Assembly: GCF_004010195.1 (NCBI RefSeq)
Contig: NC_057755.1
Span: 2,727,510-2,747,509, forward strand
Direction of reading: 5' to 3'
Origin: Chiloscyllium plagiosum
Lineage: Eukaryota
DNA: 20,000 nt
Numbering within the stretch: the first letter of the stretch is position 1; the number at the start of each line of letters is the position of its first letter. The notes below the pieces were generated by a model. It did no database searches. It was given only the letters and a program-made list of their open reading frames with translations, and was not told the origin of the DNA. Below, one piece after another: positions 2,416 to 20,000 of this stretch. The translations under genes and the position numbers were made by a program.

Positions 2416-3270
2416 ACAGTAGTAATTGAATATCCGTGATTTCATGTGTAAACACCCTAAACTCCTCAGTTAGATTCCAGTCTGTAGTTCACTCCGCAGT
2501 ACTGGTTAATCAATTGTGAACCACACTGTACCCCTCAACTATACTGCAATCTGTAACTCACTCCCTGGTACCTGTTACTCTATATATTAATTCCCCATCA
2601 CTCTTCCTCAATCAAAACTGCTCCTCTCCCTCCTCTCTTACCTCTCTTTCTGTCCTTCCTATAGCATCTAAAACTCAGAACAGTGATCAGCCTGTCCTGT
2701 CGTTGCCTCAGCCACATTTCTGTAATCGCTCTAACAGGCGGGTTCTATGATGCCATACACACCCTGAGTCCATCAGCTTTATCTATGCAGAAATAAATGC
2801 AGATTAATTCTTCAGAGTTACTTTGGGGTCTGAATTGCTGTTGTCTAACAGTAGTAATTGAATATCCGTGATTTCATGTGTAAACACCATAAACTCCTCA
2901 GTTAGATTCCAGTCTGTAGTTCACTCCCCAGTACTGGTTAATCAATTGTGAACCACACTGTACCCCTCAACTATACTGCAATCTGTAACTCACTCCCTGG
3001 TACCTGTTACTCTATATATTAATTCCCCATCACTCTTCCTCAATCAAAACTGCTCCTCTCCCTCCTCTCTTGCCTCTCTTTCTGTCCTTCCTATAGCATC
3101 TAAAACTCAGAACATTGAGCAGCCTGTCCTGTCCTTGCCTCAGTCACGTTTCTGTCATCGCTTTAACAGGCGATGCCATACACACCCTGAGTCCATCAGC
3201 CTTATCTGTACAGAAATAAATGCAGTTTAATCCTTCAGAGTTAGTTTGGGGTCTGAATTGCTGTTGTCTA
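2416..3270. repeat. Tandem duplication, 2 copies (2416-2847, 432 bp; 2848-3270, 423 bp)
   Basis: Both copies start acagtagtaattgaatatccgtg and end ggggtctgaattgctgttgtcta; copy 2 lacks 9 bp; otherwise only scattered substitutions. Confidence 0.95.
2428..2598 (+). repeat. ~2.5 units of 70-bp satellite A inserted in the CR1 endonuclease (duplicated at ~2860-3030)
   Basis: Contains ttagattccagtctgtagttcactcc; the flanking CR1 peptides rejoin across it (..GAVLIEEE | ITTVLS..). Confidence 0.85.
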
Positions 3271-4874: not shown

Positions 4875-5282
4875 ATTTCAGTCAGTATCTCACTTCTGGG
4901 CATCTGTTATTCAATATATAAACTTCCTAGATACCTTCGATAAGATTGCAGCCTGGATCTCACTCCTGGGTCGGTTATTCTATAATTTTTGCTCCATATA
5001 CCTGTTATTTTATACATAAAACCAATCTCCCAAACTCTCTATTAAATTCCAGCCCATATCTCTCTCCTGAGCATCTGTGATTCCATATGTAAACACCCTA
5101 AACTGCTGACTTAGATTCAAGTCTGCCTCTCACTCCCCATATTTGGTTAATCAATTGTGAACAACACTGTCCCCCTTGACTATACTCCTGTCTGTAACTT
5201 AATCCCTGGTACCTGTTACTCTGTATATTAATCCCCAATCCCTCAAATAGATTACAGACTGAAACTCACTCTGCGGTTTGTT
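4875..5282 (+). repeat. Degenerate array of 70-bp satellite A (~6 units); resumes at 7470-7520 after a CR1 insertion
   Basis: Recurring (t/a)agattcca-gtctg..ctcactcc at ~70-bp spacing; the unit phase continues after the CR1 tail (ataagc..catcgatgagattccagtccctaactca). Confidence 0.8.
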
Positions 5283-7469
5283 AAAGGGAACTATGGAGCT
5301 ATGAGGGAGGAGCTGGCCAAAGTTCAATGGTGCAATACCTTAGCAGGGATGACAGTGGAGGAACAATGGCGGATATTTCTGTGTACAATGCAGTAGTTGC
5401 AGGATCAGTTCATTCCAAAAAGGAAGAAAGATCCTAGGAGGAGGCATGGGTGGCCGTGGCTGACGAGGGAAGTTAAGAAACATATAAAGTCAAAAGAGAA
5501 AAAGTATAACGTAGGAAAGATAAGTGGGAAAACAGAGGACTGGGAAGCCTTTAAAGAACAACAGAGGAGTACTAAGAAGGAAATACGCAAAGAAAAAATG
5601 AGGTATGAAGGTAAACTGGCCAATAATATAAAGGAGGATAGTAAAAGCTTTTTCAGGTATGTGAAAGGCAAAAAAAATTGGTTAAGACTAAAATTGGGCC
5701 CTTGAAGACAGAAAGAGGGGAATATATTACGGGGAACAAAGAAATGGCAGAAGAATTGATTTGGTACTTTAGATATGTGTTCACTGGGGAAGACACAAGC
5801 AATGTCCCTGAGGTAACAGTGGCTGAAGGACCTGAACTGAAGGGAATTTATATTTGCCAGGAATTGATGTTGAAGAGACTGTTAGGTCTGAAGACTGCTA
5901 AGTCCCTGGGGCCTGATGGTCTACATCACAGGTTACTGAAGGAGGTGGCTCTAGAAATCGTGGAATGCTTTGGTGATTATTTTCCAGAGTTCGACAGATT
6001 CAGGATTGGAGGGTGGCTAACGTTATACCACTTTTTACGAAAGATGAGAAAGGAGAGAGGAAACAAGAAATTATAGACCAGTTAGTCTGACCTCAGTGGT
6101 GGGAAAGATGCTGGAGTATATTAAAAAGGATGAAATTACGACACATCTGGATAGTAATAACAGGATAGGTCAGAGTCAGCATGGATTTATGAAGGGGAAA
6201 TCATGCTTGACTAATCTTCTGGAATTTTTTGAGGATGTAACTCTGAAGATGGACGAGGGAGATCCAGTAGATGTAGTGTACCTGGACTTTCAGAAAGCTT
6301 TTGATAAAGTCCCACATAGGAGGTTAGTCAGCAAAATGAGGGCGCATGGTATTGGGGACAAAGTACTAACTTGGATTGAAAGTTGGTTGGCTGATAGGAA
6401 ACAAAGAGTAGTGATAAACGGCTCCACTTCAGAATGGCAGGCAGTGACCAGTGGGGTACCGCAGGGATCAGAACTGGGACTGCAGCTTTGTACAATATAT
6501 GTTCATGATATAGAAGATGGTATTAGCAATAACATTAGCAAATTTGCTGATGATACTCAGCTGGGTGGCAGGGTGAAATGTGAGGAGCATGTTAGGAGAT
6601 TACAGGGTGACCTGGACAAGTTAGGTGAGTGGTCAGATGCATGGCAGATGCAGTTTAATGTGGATAAATGTATGGTTATCCACTTTGGTGGCAAGAAAAG
6701 GAAGGCAGATTACTGTCGAAATGGAATCAATTTAGGAAAGGGGCAATACAAAGAGATCTGCGTGTTCATGTACACCAGTCAATGAAGGTAAGCATGCAGG
6801 TACAGCAGGTAGTGAAGAAGGCTAATAGCATGCTGGCCTTCATAACAAGAGGGATTGAGTATAGAAGCAAAGAGGTTCTTCTCAGCTGTACAGGGCGCTG
6901 GTGAGACAACACCTGGAATACTGTGTGCAGTTCTGGTCTCCAAATTTGAGGAAAGACATTCTGGCTATTGAGGGAGTGCAGCGGAAGTTCATGAGGTCAA
7001 TTCCTGAAATGGCGGGATTACCTTACCCTGAAAGACTGGAGCGACTGGGCTTGTATATCCTTGAGTTTAGAACACTGAGAGGGGATTTGATTGAGACATA
7101 TAAGATTATTAAAGGATTGGACGCTCTGGCGGCAGAAAACATGTTTCCGCTGATGGGTGAGTGCTGAACCAGAAGACACAGCTTCAAAATACGGGGGAGA
7201 CCATTTAGGACAGAAATGAGGAGAAACTTCTTCACCCAGAGAGTGGTGGCTGTGTGGAATGCTCTGCCCCTGACGGCAGTGGAGGCCCAGTCTCTGGATT
7301 CATTTAAGAAAGAGTTGGATAGAGCTCTCAAGGATAGGGGAATCAAGGGTTTTGGAGATAAGATAGGAACAGCATACTGATTAAGGATGATCAGCCATGA
7401 TCATTTTGAATGATGGTGCAGGCTCGAAGGGCAGAATGGCCTACTCCTGCACCTATTGTCTATTGTCTA
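5283..7469 (+). mobile_element. 5'-truncated CR1 LINE (ORF2 RT with frameshifts), intact 3' end
   Basis: Consecutive ORF2 pieces 5397..5705, 5678..6076, 6096..6785 (QHGF..KSCLTNL, YLDFQKAFDKVPH, GVPQGS, KFADD), 6668..6904, 6901..7167; 3' tail gaatggcctactcctgcacctattgtctattgtcta. Confidence 0.95.
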
Positions 7470-7749: not shown

Positions 7750-10700
7750 ATGGACGCCGCCGCCATTTTCTGCTCGGATCCGCTGATCCTGCACAGAAAC
7801 ATGTGCATCTGTGACCAGTTCAAACAGGTCTCCGGGGCCAGGGTAAACCGAAGCATGAGTGAGGCCATGCTCTTCGAGAAAAAAAGAAGGAACATATGTC
7901 AGGTATAGACAGGGTAAATCGAGTGAATTCTTAGAAGAGTAAAAAGAAAGTAGGAGTATGCTTAAGAGGGAAATCAGGAGGGCAAAACAGGGACATGAGA
8001 TAGCTTTGGCAAATAGAATTAAATAGAATCCAAAAGGGTTTTACAAATATATGAAGGACAAAAGGGTAACTAGGGAGAGAATAGGGCCCCCTCAAAGATC
8101 AGCAAGGAGGCCTTTGTGTGGAGCGACAGAAAATGCAGGAGATACTAAATGAATATTTTGCATCAGTATTTACTGTGGAAAAGGATATGGAAGATATAGA
8201 CTGTAGGGAAATAGATGGTGACATCTTGCAAAATGTCCAGATTACAGAGGAGGAAGTGCTCGGTATCTTGAAATGGTTAAAAGTGGATAAATCCCAGGAC
8301 CTGATCAGGTGTACCCGAGAAGTCTGTGGGAATCTAGAGAAGTGATTGTTGGGTCTCTTGCTGAGATATTTGAATCATTGATAGTCACAGGTGAGGTGCT
8401 GGAAGACTGGAGGTTGGCAAACGTGATGCCACTGTTTAAGAAGGGCGGTAAAGACAAACTGGGGAATGATAGACCAATGAGCCTGACCTCGGTGGTGGGC
8501 AAGTTGTTGGAGGGAATCCTGAGGGACAGGATGTACATGTATTTGGAAAGGCAAGGACTGATTTGGGATAGTCAACATGGCTTTGTGCGTGGAAAATCAT
8601 GTCTCACAAACTTGATTGAGTTTTTTGAAAAAGTAACAAAGAAGATTGATGAGGGCAGAGCAGTAGATGTGATCTATATGTCCCTTGATGTAAAGATCCC
8701 CCATTTAATATTTTATTCCTCAAGAGAGCATTGGTAGCTGAATTGCTTCCAGATCTCCAATAGAATGCAAGGAAAACAGAACAATAGCATGAATGGTTCT
8801 CTCATTTTCTTCCTCTTAAGGACTTTTCTTAATGGCAGATGGAGTTTAATTCAGATAAATGCGAGGTGCTGTATTTTGGGAAAGCAAATCTTAGCAGGAC
8901 TTATACACTTAATGGAAAGGTCCTAGGGATGGTTGCTGAACAAAGAGACCTTGGAGTGCAGGTTCATAGCTTCTTGGAAGTGGAATCGCAGGTAGATAGG
9001 ATAGTGAAGAAGGCGTTTGGTATGCTTTCCTTTATTGGTCAGAGTATTGAGTACAGGAGTTGGAAGGTCATGTTGCAGCTGTACAGGACAGTGGTTAAGC
9101 CACTGTTGGAATATTGCGTGCAATTCTGGTCTCCTTCCTATCGGAAAGATGTTGTGAAACTTGAAAGATTTCAGAAAAGATTTACAAGGGTGTTGCCACG
9201 GTTGGAGGATCTGAGCTACCGGGAAAGGCTGGATAGGCTGAGGCTGTTTTCCCTCGAGCGTCGGAGGCTGAGGGGTGACCTTACAGAGTTTTACAAAATT
9301 ATGAGGGGCATGGATAGGACAAATAGACAAAGTCTTTTTCCCTGTGGTCGGGGAGTCCAGAACGAGAGTGCATAGGTTTAGGGTGAGAGAGGAAAGCTAT
9401 AGAAGAGACCTAAGTTGCAACCTTTTCACGCAGAGGGTGGTACGTGTATGGAATGAGCTGTCAGAGGATGTGGTGGAGGCTGGTACAATTGCAACATTTA
9501 AGATGCATTTGGATTGCTATATGAATAGGAAAGGTTTGGAGGGATATTGGCCGGGTGCTGGCAGGTGGGACTAGTTTGGGTTGGGATATCTGGTTGGCGT
9601 GAACAGATTGGACCGAAGGGACTGTTTCCATGCTGTACATCTCTATGACTCTATAACAAGGCCGACCAATTCTCCATCCCCTTCACCATCAGGACTGACC
9701 ACCTGAAGGTGCTGGGTGTTTGATTTGGACGGGCTGGGGTGTGTACCAAGTCTTGGGAGGAGCGTATCAGGAAAGTGAGGCAGAAACTGGGCAGATGGGA
9801 GCAACGGTCACTCTCCAACGTGGGTGAAAACCTCGTCATCAGGTGTGAGGTACTGTCATTGTTGTTATATGTGGCACAGGCCTGGCCTAGACGTGTGCCA
9901 CTGCAGTCACCCGGGCCATCTTCCACTGCATATGGTCCGAAGGGACACCATGTATAAAGATCTGGGCAACGGGGGAAAAAACACCTCCAATGTCACCCTC
10001 ACCCTGATGGTCACCCTTGCATGTGGCTGCATCAAGCTGTGCGTGGATCCCCGGTACGCAAACACGAAGTGTCACTATGTTTTACCTGTCCCCGGTGTTG
10101 CAACGGATGGGCCTGGCCTCGATACCGCAGAACACTCCAAGTAGTTGGACCGTTCCGGATCACCTGTCCTTCGTGGAGAAATTTATGAAGAAAAGCAGAT
10201 TTGACCACAAGTCCATCCGGAAGTGGTCAGCACATAGTGTCCTTGAGACCCTTTGGGAAAAGGAGAGGGTGGATCCTATTGAGTGGTTCCCTGAGCAGAC
10301 TGTCAAAGTCATTTGGCAAAATGCCTCATCGCCAGAACTTTCCAACAAGCACGAAGACATGGCTTGGCAGGTGGTGAGAAGGGCTCTGCCTGTGATATCC
10401 TCCATGCATGCCCGGACTGTCTGCCCCACCGTATGCTGCCCTTGAAGCGGCTGCGGAGAGGTCGGGACTGTCACACACCTCCTTCTGGAATGTACCTATG
10501 CAGAAGAAGTCTGGAGAGGAATGCAGTGGTGTTTGTTGAGGTTCGTCCCGAGCAGCGGCGTGATGTGGGATGCTGTGCTCTGTGGCCTGTTCCCTGGGAC
10601 GCACACTGAGACGAACATCAACTGTGCCTGGAGGATCATCAACTCGGTGAAAGATACCTGTCTGAAACTTGTTGGTCTTCCAGCTGAAGGAGTTGACCCT

Positions 10701-13454: not shown

Positions 13455-14990
13455 CTGAAACAGCTATCTGTTATTCTATATACAAACCACCTTAAAATCC
13501 TTGATTAGATTCCAGTCTGTAACTCACTCCCGGTCTCTGTTATTCTACATATCAAACCCACCTCAAATGCCTCGATAGGATTCCAGTCTGTAACTCACTC
13601 CCATACATCTGTGGCTGTTTATGTTCACCACCTGAAACCCCTTGATTAGATTCCAGACTGTACCTCACTCCTGGGTATCAATTATTCGGACATAATCCCC
13701 CAAACCCCTCAATTAGATCTCAGTTTGTAACTCACACTTGGTTTTTTTAAAATAAATTAACCCCGATCAATCAATTAGATTCTAACCTGTTGCCAACTCA
13801 CTTACATCTGTTACTCCATATATAAACCACATCGAAAGCTTGCTTAGATTTCACTCTGTAACTCACGCCTCAGTATCTGTTAATCCATGTATGCACCACA
13901 CCGAACCTGTTGATTAGATTTAGGTCTGTAAATCACTCCTGGGTATCTGTTCTTCCATTCACAAGCCATCCCAAAACCCTCAATTAGAAACCAGTCTGTA
14001 ACTTCTTCCCGGGAATCTGTTATTCTATACATAACCCACCTCAAACCCTTCAATAGGTTCCATTTTGAAACTTATGCTTGGATTTTATTTTAATGTAAAT
14101 AAACGCCTTGATACACCAATTAGATTCCAATCTGCAACTCACTCATATATATTCCATATATAATCCAACACAACATCCTTGATCAAATTCTAGTCTGTAA
14201 CTCACTCCTGAGTATCTGTTATTCCACATTGAAACAAACACAACCTCCTCGATCAGATTCCAGTCTGGAACTTACTCCTGAGTATCTGCTATTCCATATA
14301 TATAAACCAACTCAATCTCCTCGATCAGATTCCAATCTGCAACTCATTTCAGGTATCTGTTCTTCAACATATAACCCACCTCAGACATTTCAATTAGATT
14401 CCAGTTTGTAACTCGCTCCCAGGTATCTGTTATTCTGTACCAATACCATCTCCAGTCCCTCAGTTAGTTTCCAGTTTGCAACTCATACTTGGGTATTTTA
14501 CTTTTATATAAATAACCCCCCGATTCATCAATTAGATTCCAATCTGTAACTCATTCATGTATATTTGTTATTCCATATATAAACCAACCCGAACTCAAAA
14601 TTAGATTCCAGCCTGTAGCACACTCCTGGGTATCTATTATTCCATATATATAAACCACCCCAAATCCCTAAATTAGATTCTAGTCTGTAACTCACTCCTG
14701 AGGATTTGTCATTCTACAGGTAAGCCACCCCAAATCCTCTCAATTAAATTCCAGTCCGTTACTTACTCTTGGGTCTGTGCTATTCCATGTATAAAGCACC
14801 CCGAACAGCTCAATTCGATTCCAATTTGTAATTCATTCCCATATCTCTGTGACTCTGTAAATGAACCACCCCAAACTCCTGGATTAGATTCCAGTCTGCA
14901 ATTCACTCCAGGGTATCTGTTATTCTATCTATAAATCTCTCGATGAGATTTGAATCTGTAACTCACTTCCATGCATCCATCACTCTAAAT
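13455..14990 (+). repeat. Main array of 70-bp satellite A (~22 units)
   Basis: Approximate consensus ttagattccagtctgtaactcactcctgggtatctgttattccatatataaaccaccccaaacccctcaa, repeated at ~60-72-bp spacing. Confidence 0.95.
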
Positions 14991-15850: not shown

Positions 15851-16403
15851 GGGATGCAGCATCTGAACCTAGGGTCGCCATTGGTTGTATGAAGACTGTA
15901 TGCCGTTGTTCTGCCCGTTTTCGGGTTCGAGGAGTCCCCAGTATATATCTGCCCACTGTCCTTCTGCCATTGGTGATGTGTCCGGTGATAACATCATTCG
16001 GGATCCAGAGAGAATCATTGTCATAGAACAGTTGAAGGAATGGCCATTTGGAAAGGTCACTACCAGTCCATCTGGCCCGCACAGAACCGAGACCCCACAT
16101 CTTACCAGCAAGTCACGTCCCATCAGATTCACAGGGCATGCAGGTGATGAAATATACTGGTCACAAAAGGTCTGTCCGGCCACTGATGTGATCAGTAGCG
16201 ATGTCAAAGGCAGATTTTCTGGTTTACCCGAGAACCCTACTAACTGGACGCTAGAGGATGACATGCTTGACCGAGGTATATCACAAGTAATGGTAGAAAA
16301 TCTTGCACCCGTGTCAACCAAAAAAATACAGATTCTTGTCCATGACCCTCATTTGCATATAGGGGTCTGCCAATCCCACATGCCCCTGGGTTCTCGGGCC
16401 CTG
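15851..16403 (-). pseudogene. pro: Retroviral aspartic protease and start of the PR-RT spacer
   Basis: DPYMQMRVMDKNLYF(L)VDTGARFSTI..CPVNLMGRDLL; one extra T in a T7 run (16320-16326); TAG at 15869-15871 probably from TGG (QWRP*VQMLHP). Confidence 0.9.
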
Positions 16404-18569
16404 TCAATATTCGTACCCCTGCCCTTCTGGCATAGTTTGGGGGTACTGTCCTTGCACCTGGGCTGCAGTTGCATTTGGGACTTGGTAAGGCTGAACAGCC
16501 TGTTGAACAGGAGGCTGACTTGCGCGGACATACTGTCCTCGGATCAATACCTGGCCTCCCTGGGTTCCCCACAACACGGGACAATTCCTTCTCCAATGCC
16601 CGGGTTGGCCACATTCAAAACAGGTGCTGGGTGGCTGACCTCTGAATCCTCTGCGGCCCCTTCCTCTACCACGCATTCCTCCAGAAATACCTATATGCCT
16701 GTCCCCATATTGGGGGTAGGGTGGCATCCAATCAGGTGTTGGGTCTAATCTCAGCGGGTTGTTTTGTGGCAATGGCCGCTGAACCATCTGATTAGTCGTC
16801 TTTTGGGAGGCCTTCTTTGTATCATTAGCCCTCCTCCTAGCCTCATTGAGCTGTAACTTCAGCAACTGCACTTGAGCTGACTCATTGCTCTGTTTATCCT
16901 CATCCTGTTTTGTCCTGTAACGTTTCATGTGGTGCATCAAATGTTTTTCCCACTGTTCTGCACAACAACCTGGGATATCAGGATTACTCTCCATTGCCTC
17001 TTTTACTTCCTTAGGCATCCCTGCCATAATGGCATTCCTAAATAACGTAGTCTGTAGCTGACCCGACTCTGGATGGCTCCCCGCAGTATCTGTCCACGTG
17101 ACCTTACACCTAGCCAAAAAGGCAGACATATCCTCACCCTCCTTCATTGTGAAGGTGAGTGAGTGCATCGCTCCCGGTGGAATCGGGAATCTCTCCCTCA
17201 TTTCCTTCCCACACAGGTGGCATACTGCGTAAACGGGTCCGAATCAGGTAATAAGTTGGTCCCCGCAGACACTTCAATCTGCTGTATTTCCCACATATTC
17301 AATTGCTTGCCCAACAATGCTCTCCAATTACCCATAGCTAACTTGTGCCCTAGTGTATATTGGCAAAATTTAGTCATTCAAGGCCCACCTCCCTCCATGG
17401 ATGGGGGCATTTTATCCAGGATGCAATTCATATCAGTATATGTGAAGGGCTGATAAATATCCCCCAGATAAGAGCCTCTGTAAATTAATGGCATTTGGTG
17501 GTGCTGATACTTTATCGGTTGTCGTAATGTGTCTCTTTGATGCAGGTTGTAACTTGGTTCAGGTAGGGACTTCATTGGAGGGCCATGTTCGGTATGCATT
17601 GTGAGTGAGCCTTAAAAAGTGACTGGGTAGGTGTTTGGATCATCGTCTGTCAGGGATCCTTCGTCCTCAAAGTCTGTACTACTTTTAGACTCCTCCCCAT
17701 CCAATTTCTCTCTATCCCGTTCTTCCCTCAAATCTCTCCTTCTTCTGTCTGAGAACCCATCATCCAAAAACTGACCTGAATCATGTAATCTTCACCTCTT
17801 TTTATTCTCAAAACTATACGGTGTCGAATAAGCATCTGGCTCCTGCACTGCTAAATATCTCCCCTGTTTTGGCTGTTCTTTGTTTCTACTGTACGTCATT
17901 ATCACCGTGCTTGCTTACTTCACTTCCTTAACTTTCTGTTCAGCTTCTAGTGTTAGTTTTTCTACTTTTCTGATACTTTCTTCTACAGCTTCCGCTTGTT
18001 CCTACTTCTTGCACATCTAACACCCCTTCTTGAACAGACATAAGTGGCATTTGCATTACAGGATATGGAGGCGGTGATTGTACCACAGGCAATTTAGGAT
18101 ATAATGGTGCGGATGGTCCTGCATTTTCTGTCTCCTTTGTCAGTTCTATTGTAGAGGTACCACCTACTTTCTTTTGTAATGTTTCTACCGCCATACAGGC
18201 CAACGTCATGTTATGCAAATGAATCCTCCTCTCTTCATTCTCCCCGCCTTCTTTTGTCCACTTTCTTCTAACTAATATTGACCCTTTCTTTCCCTTCATG
18301 TGTCCTTCTACTTCTAATTTAGCTTGCTCTTCTGCTTTTCCTAAAAACAGTGACAATTTCTTCCTCTCCTCATCTTTAGGGACTTTGCCCTGTTTCTGTA
18401 ATTCCTCCCAAATCTTATCATATTTCTCCATCATTGTTTTTTGTTTGTTCTTTGCAAGCCCACTGACTAATTGACTTCTGGCTTTACCCCACTGCTGTTT
18501 TACGGGCAACATTAAATCGGAATAACATCCTCCGTATTCTTCACACTCTTTATCAAACTCCCCTTCCAT
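16404..18569 (-). pseudogene. gag: Retroviral gag (~720 codons) with 2 frameshifts (~18000, ~17203) and 4 in-frame stops
   Basis: PSAPLYPKL..PPPY (18063-18116); capsid MPLIYRG..YQPF..DM..ILDKMPP..EGGGP; MHR-like KEGEDMSAFLARC; RG-rich tract; CFECGQPGHWRRNC (16581-16622); TGA at 16404-16406. Confidence 0.9.
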
Positions 18570-18874: not shown

Positions 18875-19092
18875 GTTGCTTTTATGAGATCCTGCTCAAT
18901 GGACTTTAAACCTCCTCACACTTACGTACCATGTTGCTTTTATGGGGACTCTAACCCCAAGGGACTTTAAACCTGTACGTATTAAACTTTGTTGCTTTTC
19001 TGGGGACTCTAACCCCATGGGACTTTAAACCCGCACGTACCTTGTTGCTTTTGTGGGGACTCTAACCCCACGGGACTTTAAACCTGTACGTA
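18875..19092 (-). repeat. Leader tandem repeat: three ~52-58-bp units plus one degenerate unit
   Basis: gttgctttt-N-tggggactctaacccca-N-gggactttaaacc at ~18933, 18991, 19043; degenerate copy at ~18875. Confidence 0.9.
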
Positions 19093-19198
19093 CTATATCA
19101 ATACTTTATCCACTTACTATTACAAGGACACTTGCAGTATAATGACAACAATCAATTTAGTATCTCCAGTTGCAGAACTTCGATATAAACAGGCGTCG

Positions 19199-19207
19199 GC
19201 TCACCTT
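19199..19207 (-). promoter_or_regulatory. Probable major splice donor of the ERV
   Basis: AAG|GTGAGC on the minus strand, ~90 nt downstream of the PBS. Confidence 0.6.
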
Positions 19208-19295
19208 TTTTTATGCGGCGCCGCTTGTTGTTGTCATCAAACGTCAGCTGTCCGTTGTTTCTATTTTTCTCTCTTTCCGTCACTTCTCTGTCTTC

Positions 19296-19313
19296 ATCAC
19301 GTCGGGGTCACCA
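19296..19313 (-). promoter_or_regulatory. Primer binding site, tRNA-Trp
   Basis: TGGTGACCCCGACGTGAT, the same 18-mer as the RSV/ALV tRNA-Trp PBS; separated from the LTR-terminal CA by a 3-nt spacer. Confidence 0.95.
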
Positions 19314-19316
19314 ATT

Positions 19317-19873
19317 TGTTGGACTTTGGCTCAATCTACAAACTTACTTTCTTCTATGTGTGAGCCAAGTCCTGCGTGTTCTTTTAAATGAAGCAATAGG
19401 AGAAGATATTCGGTCTCACACTCTTAATTTATTTTAAACAGTAAGTGGATAAAGCATTCAGAGCTCTGGGTCTAAATCTCTTTGTCCCTGACAAACTACA
19501 AAGTGTGCCAGTTCAAAATGTAAGACCCTGTTATGTCCCTGACCCAGTCTTTTTATACAATAAAAAACGTCATACAATCACTGAGGTAGAATTATCTTCT
19601 GATTGGCTGTTGATCTGACTCCATTCCCCGCCTCCTCGCATTCCCAGATGTCCGACCCCACGTGACCTTCTTTTGCCTGCGAAACGGAGGACCACGTGGT
19701 CCCCGCGCGCCTCCGCCGCGTGAAACAGAACATCACGTGACCCCGCTTTGCAACGGAGCACAGCACCACGTGACCTTGTTCTGCGCGCACGCATAACGGA
19801 GCACCCCAAAAGGCTTCCGAATGCCGAGTGTATTTATACTCGCAGCCAGCCATAAGTAAGTCATATATTTACA
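19317..19873 (-). repeat. 5' LTR (557 bp)
   Basis: Starts TGTAAAT at 19873 (Tx1 boundary) and ends CCAACA at 19317; CCAAT 19606-19602, TATAAAA 19557-19551, AATAAA 19433-19428 in the expected order. Confidence 0.9.
19551..19805 (-). promoter_or_regulatory. U3 promoter/enhancer: TATA, CCAAT, GC box, four CACGTG E-boxes
   Basis: CACGTG at 19659, 19693, 19734, 19767; ccccgcc at 19626; aacggag three times; CpG-rich. Confidence 0.75.
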
Positions 19874-20000
19874 GTACGTAGTGACACTTGGTGTTTGCGT
19901 ACCGGGGATCTACGCACAGCTTGATGCAGCCACACACAAAGGAGGCCATCAGGGTGAGGGTGCCATTGGGTGTATTTTTTCCCCCGTTGCCCAGATCTTT
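19874..20000 (-). mobile_element. Second Tx1-family copy, the ERV integration target; runs off the window
   Basis: Reverse complement aligns with ~9956-10080 (aaagatctgggcaacggggg..ggctgcatcaagctgtgcgt..gtgtcacta). Confidence 0.92.

Follow-up and report, generated by a model that had tools for sequence, protein, structure and literature searches.

A long duplex predicted between R and the leader of shark endogenous retroviruses, and its recurrence in a distant family

The unspliced RNA of an endogenous retrovirus (ERV) in Chiloscyllium plagiosum is predicted to carry a long helix in which the end of R pairs with a segment of the leader over a conserved 19 to 22 nt. We consider this shark helix to be real and probably selected; it is longer than the known retroviral long-range interactions (LRIs) and is placed in R. 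The position of the duplex, an inner stem, a palindrome and a splice donor are kept across two ERV families, A and B, whose arms share no sequence, and comparison of these distant families suggests that the R/leader element is conserved in position rather than in sequence. By analogy with other retroviruses, we give an about even chance to the reading that the duplex is a leader LRI likely to close the packaging and dimerisation domain of the unspliced RNA.

The provirus and its leader

The window, that is, the whole 20,000-nt stretch analysed here, comes from a host genome of 3.56 Gb and carries the 5' part of the ERV on the minus strand within its final 4 kb (Table 1). The LTR starts at 19873, where the corresponding ends of two other copies bear 4-bp target duplications, and its inner edge falls where LTR-only matches stop (19317 +/-4); the position of the TATA box would place the start of R at about 19527. 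Between gag and the PBS, which we take to be of the tRNA-Trp type (19313-19296), lies a leader of ~750 nt. The window copy ends after pro, and the 3' LTR is absent from the window. Its best gag matches are bamboo-shark proteins (82-85% identical) and electric-ray proteins (57-59%). Other copies of the same family, family A, contain RT, RNase H and integrase-like stretches, as well as what is presumably env, recognised from a TM-like motif; a Pfam comparison of env gave no match. In similarity searches, shark and teleost ERV proteins matched the family-A RT piece at 46-83% identity, with teleost relatives at 60-77% RT identity, and among solved structures this piece is nearest to gammaretrovirus-type RTs. 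These searches identify LTRs with target duplication, a PBS, the order gag-pro-pol-env and an MLV-like RT and integrase, the features of class I (gamma/epsilon-related) elements. LTR pairs are only 87-96% identical in the six long copies, which indicates that family A is old, and its copies are ~5-14% diverged.

Table 1. Features of the ERV and its leader in the window, and loci of two further families
Feature	Position	Strand	Basis or remark
5' LTR (U3-R-U5), class I fish/shark-type ERV	19317..19873	-	LTR-only matches and target duplications
TATA box	19550..19557	-	sequence
predicted 5' R hairpin, differs between subfamilies	19469..19527	-	alignment fold
R arm of duplex (core 19457-19439)	19437..19458	-	inverted repeat, pairing, alignment fold
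AAUAAA poly(A) signal, predicted unpaired	19428..19433	-	polyA RNA reads; fold
cleavage/poly(A) site = R/U5 border	19409..19412	-	poly(T) read ends
PBS	19296..19313	-	first 14 nt common to family B
inner stem, 5' strand	19225..19253	-	pairs with 19155-19126; p 0.93-0.97
10-nt GC palindrome, candidate dimer-initiation site	19215..19224	-	retained in commonest copy types
putative major splice donor, intron start 19204, predicted in hairpin	19199..19207	-	motif; thin read evidence
inner stem, 3' strand	19126..19155	-	0 clade-level changes in 30 sites
leader arm of duplex (core 19119-19101)	19100..19121	-	inverted repeat, pairing, alignment fold
three tandem repeats, ~55-61 nt	18924..19095	-	downstream of leader arm
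broken gag (several frames, CCHC knuckle) and protease	15869..18569	-	sequence, protein matches
family C loci: L247, L251, L254
family D loci: L248, L249, L252, L255, L256

In the alignment fold of 87 family-A copies, several elements fall inside the duplex: the unpaired AAUAAA, predicted U5-leader stems that flank the PBS (19405-19388 with 19297-19283), and the inner stem. This inner stem, which has a core of 12 contiguous pairs (19239-19228:19151-19140) and none of whose 17 scored pairs underwent a clade-level change, encloses the GC palindrome and the donor hairpin. The 5' R hairpin has an apical stem at a probability of 0.93 and basal stems at 0.4-0.6, with about one clade-level change per site. 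Within the tandem repeats, each of which holds a short palindrome and a 5-bp G-C hairpin, the hairpin pair 19015:19003 is G-C in 48, A-U in 23 and G-U in 13 copies (n=87); tandem repeats past the donor are also seen in the leaders of families B and D. Two pairings were discarded: a 13-bp helix joining both ends of R is not conserved, one of its pairs holding in 6 of 87 copies, and the extended pairing between 5' R and the tandem repeats that appears in the single-sequence fold is missing from the alignment fold. A 7-nt stretch of U5 (window 19349-19339) matches the leader arm and could thus offer the R arm a local partner in LTR-only RNA, with moderate predicted support.

Beyond the leader, gag ends in a TGA (window 16404-16340) from which an open stretch in the same frame runs on toward the protease, also in other copies; this arrangement of reading frames suggests stop-codon readthrough rather than a frameshift. 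Elsewhere in the window, a ~70-nt repeat unrelated to the ERV occurs in some 28 diverged copies, arrayed at 13466-14990, 2416-3270 and 4875-5290. A 125-nt inverted repeat (90%; 9956-10080 and 19876-20000), with arms 9.8 kb apart and one of them adjoining the LTR start, probably represents two copies of a host repeat.

Wider searches for relatives returned little: two Rfam matches, both far under threshold; a single match in a metagenome scan for DNA relatives, confined to the zinc knuckle; and no DNA relatives among the viral contigs searched. The PBS pattern with another next base recovered one family-A copy, and a shorter PBS pattern gave 15 matches, at least 14 of them at family-B places already known. 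A search with the ray gag identified family A alone among 19 upstream stretches, several of which are incomplete or unreadable.

Pairing and its retention in families A and B

In the window copy the two arms, of 22 nt each and 315 nt apart, are 91% complementary at the DNA level. The first-pass annotation had read them as 22 contiguous pairs in the viral-sense RNA, and recomputation on the minus strand bears this out, with 20 Watson-Crick pairs and two G-U pairs (19455:19103 and 19439:19119) that account for both DNA mismatches; AATAAA (19433-19428) begins 3 nt past the R arm, also as described. Minus-strand folding, which the annotation had proposed as a check, recovers the duplex in the minimum free energy structure of 19530-19080 (z -5.5; 0 of 100 shuffles), and its claim that the loop encloses U5, the PBS, the palindrome and the donor agrees with the alignment fold. 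In a fold of the 961-nt leader, the duplex has pair probabilities of 0.93-1.0 (0.66 for the last pair) and an energy of -28.6 kcal/mol; the longest contiguous helix in dinucleotide shuffles of this leader is 17 bp, with 0 of 300 reaching 19. The leader arm lies ~85 nt downstream of the putative donor and ~530 nt upstream of the gag start at 18569. Complementary segments of R and of the downstream leader, a few hundred nucleotides apart, thus enclose the PBS and the candidate dimer signal. The R arm is found in both LTRs of all six long copies (6/6), and since the same arm is present at both ends, a duplex of the 3' R with the leader arm would be equally stable.

Other copies of family A were collected by means of a pattern placed outside the arms, which hit 106 places, 6 of them left out; together with the first search, these yielded 102 unique 5' copies, the window's own included. 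Both arms could be scored in 90 of the 102, the other 12 being dropped because truncations or insertions left one arm unalignable, and 3 more were dropped for gaps to give the alignment of 87. The 19-bp core is kept across the 90 scored copies, which disposes of a copy-specific inversion, the outcome that the annotation had named as fatal to the duplex. Individual copies retain 17-22 of the 22 pairs, with all 22 present in only 13 of 90 and the outer pairs 1, 21 and 22 failing in about half or more; hence the length of 22 bp first given holds for the window copy, but family-wide it is a subfamily maximum around a conserved core of 19 bp. The duplex energy lies below -18 kcal/mol in 85 of the 90 copies, and the mean core pair probability is 0.68-1.0 in all of 30 sampled copies (30/30).

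Covariation within family A is limited. Two pairs vary among A-U, G-U and G-C: 19450:19108 (44, 24 and 18 copies, respectively, with 4 mismatches; n=90) and 19455:19103 (43, 41 and 5, with 1 mismatch; n=90). On a tree made without the arm sequences, however, the G-C states belong mainly to one clade, occur on a G background and arise about once each, so that the covariation sought by the annotation is present in the form of these two variable pairs but amounts to only about one double-change event per pair. Clade-level changes (branches with at least 3 tips) kept or restored pairing 13 times and broke it 3 times, relative to a null keep rate of 0.34-0.36, whereas small changes (1-2 tips) are divided 37 to 38 between keeping or restoring and breaking; such tree-based counts are inflated by recombination. 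Collapsed to distinct clade-level site changes, 6 keep and 2 break pairing (binomial P ~0.03, calculated by hand), a bias within family A that is suggestive, not decisive. Among the departures from pairing are a C-A mismatch at 19453 in a 7-copy clade and a G-G at the terminal pair in 6 copies.

A teleost RT query uncovered three further ERV families in the same genome. Family B (e.g., L243) has an RT 46% identical to that of family A, and the 5' regions of the two families have in common only the PBS and three short motifs. A duplex of 19 out of 20 pairs (L243:3084-3065 with 2755-2736, minus strand) was nonetheless spotted by eye in family B at the position predicted from family A and then tested: its probability is 0.96-0.98 in the 20 loci, of 25, that span the region, the other 5 not covering both arms. 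The R segment ends at the first A of AAUAAA, and its partner begins 117 nt past the donor. The arms of families A and B agree at only 6 positions; cross-duplexes between them reach -3 and -6 kcal/mol versus -25 for each native pair, and 0 of 500 shuffles match the native duplex of either family. Family B also possesses a 12-bp inner stem and, in the same place before the donor as the palindrome of family A, a different palindrome of 12 nt. Within family B, no double change was found at duplex pairs. Pairing is therefore conserved despite sequence change, modestly within family A and with unrelated arms in family B. Both the wobble-mediated double changes and the occurrence of the same duplex with unrelated sequence argue for selection on pairing, and the helix is very probably a selected RNA structure.

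Losses in the R arm of family B comprise 11 nt in 2 of 20 copies and 5 nt in 1 of 20. The 11-nt loss is carried by two independent proviruses, L345/L346 (G000:C10) and L347/L348 (G000:C2), which differ in their flanks and 4-bp target duplications. In both proviruses it is confined to the 5' LTR, the 3' LTR being intact; two matching LTRs would be expected from ordinary reverse transcription. This variant did not spread, given that the intact pattern has 207 matches. Two family-B 5' LTRs, L273 and L279, share the 5-nt loss, which would leave ~15 pairs around a bulge.

The RTs of families C and D are ~39-44% identical to that of family A and 62% identical to each other, and their PBSs are presumably of the Pro type. 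The duplex is not general, as both families are without an equivalent: shuffles do as well as the best candidates in 196 of 200 and 27 of 200 cases, respectively. Each has a long predicted stem after the PBS, and their shorter U5/R-leader pairings are not above chance.

Possible roles of the duplex

As we picture it, the helix would close the 5' leader of unspliced RNA from the outside like a clasp, keeping U5, the PBS, the donor and the dimer palindrome folded in a way that permits packaging and dimerisation; a packaging role was also one of the two functions suggested by the annotation. Splicing at 19204 would remove the leader arm, leaving the spliced env RNA and the 3' R to fold otherwise, and recognition by Gag or dimerisation would depend on the clasped fold, by analogy with HIV-1, FIV, MPMV and MMTV. 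The donor motif has at least 7/9 consensus matches in 78 of 87 copies; one contig departs from the sequence at 19207, and read depth drops from 2 through 0.37 to 0 across the donor. Another donor-like site lies at 19040, beyond the leader arm. That the leader arm is restricted to unspliced RNA, as first proposed, is weakly supported. A foamy virus-like switch exposing a U5 donor-like site at 19347 was considered and set aside, as its unpaired probabilities of 0.70 and 0.63 indicate no switch.

What the folds say about the poly(A) signal bears directly on the choice of role. A polyA RNA run from a related organism, of which 150 of ~13 million reads were placed, supplied poly(T) loose ends at 19409 (14 reads) and 19412 (23 reads), 16-19 nt after AAUAAA; another RNA run (X12) placed 0 reads on the sequence. 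As the reads also cover U3, they derive from 3'- or solo-LTR-type transcripts, and AAUAAA thus works at 3' or solo LTRs and the arm is in R. In the 5' context the hexamer has an unpaired probability of 0.94-0.98 in the window copy, 0.85 on average over 25 copies and 0.82 in family B, and an HIV-1-type hairpin with a base-paired AAUAAA is accordingly not predicted. The cleavage region of family A is unpaired at 0.58-0.76 with the leader versus 0.22-0.33 without it. That the duplex itself occludes the 5' poly(A) signal, a form of the suppression suggested by the annotation, finds no support in these folds. It is this opposition of the folding to occlusion, along with the likeness to packaging-signal LRIs, that leads us to the clasp.

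A less direct suppression of 5' polyadenylation, in which a duplex particular to the 5' LTR crowds or masks the sequence immediately upstream of AAUAAA so that cleavage takes place only at the 3' LTR, appears unlikely, even though suppression of some kind would be needed where a hexamer lies in R and is used (PMC3694450, in the portion available). The arm adjoins the hexamer in both families, that of family B including its first A, and family B has a further 8-bp helix just past the hexamer; the 20 nt upstream are unpaired at only 0.14-0.15 in the 5' context versus 0.50-0.55 in LTR-only RNA. A poly(A) role and shared descent would account equally well for this fixed position relative to AAUAAA. 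Nevertheless, folds of the 5' context leave the hexamer itself single-stranded (unpaired at 0.96 for A and 0.82 for B), the leader is predicted to make the family-A cleavage region more open, not less, and the leader partner would be transcribed ~310 nt later. The hexamer-to-donor distances of 229 nt (A) and 193 nt (B) moreover fit the U1-dependent mechanism of HIV-1 (~200 nt), for which no duplex is required. Control of splicing is distinctly unlikely in our estimation. Here, the duplex would hide a donor-like site within its leader arm and act together with the inner stem to reduce splicing, sparing enough full-length RNA. A 7/9-consensus site does fall in both leader arms (at 19117 in 84 of 87 copies of A; in 19 of 20 of B), that of A being predicted paired (unpaired 0.06) along with most of the main donor (0.18). 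This is a post hoc reading, however: with 6 such sites over 961 nt in A and 3 over ~480 aligned nt in B, each overlap has a chance probability of ~12%, the sites occupy different places within the two arms, and use of either is seen in no read.

The location of the arm in R, and not U5, in both families and its presence in both LTRs bring to mind a capture of the 3' R: after reverse transcription has copied and degraded the 5' R, the leader arm would pair with the 3' R and tether the acceptor near the primer site. Pairing between 5' and 3' ends has been proposed for HIV-1 and is a requirement in Ty1 (PMC1976439, in the part available), and template proximity aids strand transfer according to the available text of PMC6088434. 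Yet part of the sequence to which strong-stop DNA must anneal would be hidden in an RNA-RNA duplex, the known cases use unique U3 sequence, and the present data are equally compatible with 5' pairing; we rate this capture as quite improbable. The same low expectation attaches to a two-step scheme for the fish/shark class I clade in which one ~20-bp leader arm would be used twice, clasping the 5' R and then catching the 3' R for strand transfer. That the duplex is a passive relic, an inverted copy made by one template switch and inherited without selection, is highly improbable. An old inverted repeat could persist in a family only ~5-14% diverged, and some clade-level breaks in pairing do occur, but a relic fails to explain either the bias of clade-level changes toward pairing or an equally strong duplex of unrelated sequence in the same place at 46% RT identity. 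A helix so long and discrete should allow packaging, poly(A) choice, splicing and strand transfer to be told apart cleanly.

Relation to known retroviral leaders

A few mammalian retroviruses have leaders whose RNA structure has been determined. As set out in the available part of PMC13736810, packaging signals are anchored by LRIs in HIV-1 (U5-AUG, 11 nt), FIV (R/U5-gag, 7 nt), MPMV (LRI-I/II) and MMTV (11 nt, ~200 nt apart). The shark duplex resembles them, as far as that account extends, in that distant complementary segments close a domain containing U5, the PBS, a palindrome and the donor and are kept between isolates, and, as in most of them, the partner is located past the donor. In contrast to the LRIs so described, it has 19-22 contiguous base pairs, about double their length, and its 5' arm belongs to R, immediately ahead of AAUAAA, instead of to U5. 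Its 3' arm, moreover, is ~530 nt upstream of the gag start instead of at the AUG or within gag, unlike the arms described for HIV, FIV and MPMV but not that of MMTV. A survey of the literature, with most subscription journals outside its coverage, found no report of such pairing between R and the leader in the retroviruses of fish or sharks. The novelty implied by the first-pass annotation holds insofar as this survey showed none for fish, but long-range pairing of R/U5 with the leader is a known class in other retroviruses.

In HIV-1, the U5-AUG and polyA-gag pairings are described as specific to unspliced RNA in the available text of PMC10250195. The pseudoknot of the HIV-1 polyA loop with gag provides a parallel in which R at the poly(A) signal pairs downstream with a partner present in unspliced RNA only, as the shark leader arm would be, although the HIV-1 hexamer resides in a local hairpin, whereas the shark hexamer is predicted to be unpaired, with a long regular stem 5' of it (PMC10250195 and PMC12789967, both in the portions available). 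The available part of PMC3694450 attributes suppression of the HIV-1 5' poly(A) site to U1 at a donor 195 nt downstream. The shark element is comparable to this U1/major-donor suppression of HIV-1 and foamy virus in having the hexamer in R and a donor at a similar distance, 193-229 nt; the HIV-1 and foamy virus mechanism, as presented there, requires no long duplex. As in the cyclisation of Ty1 and the gag-U3R pairing of HIV-1, the 3' end of the genome has its complement in an internal 5' segment (PMC1976439, in the part available). Unlike in those cases as described, the 3' partner in the shark element is R itself, and the 5' and 3' copies of R would therefore compete for one leader arm.

In its coding regions, the ERV resembles the epsilon-related class I fish ERVs with a gamma-type Env that are treated in the available part of bioRxiv 10.1101/2021.11.23.469661, sharing with them the order gag-pro-pol-env, a single CCHC knuckle, and an MLV-like RT and integrase C terminus; that part describes no leader RNA structure for them. 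Set beside the mammalian LRIs, the shark helix suggests that a distant branch of the retroviruses, too, distinguishes genomic from spliced RNA by means of a clasped leader.
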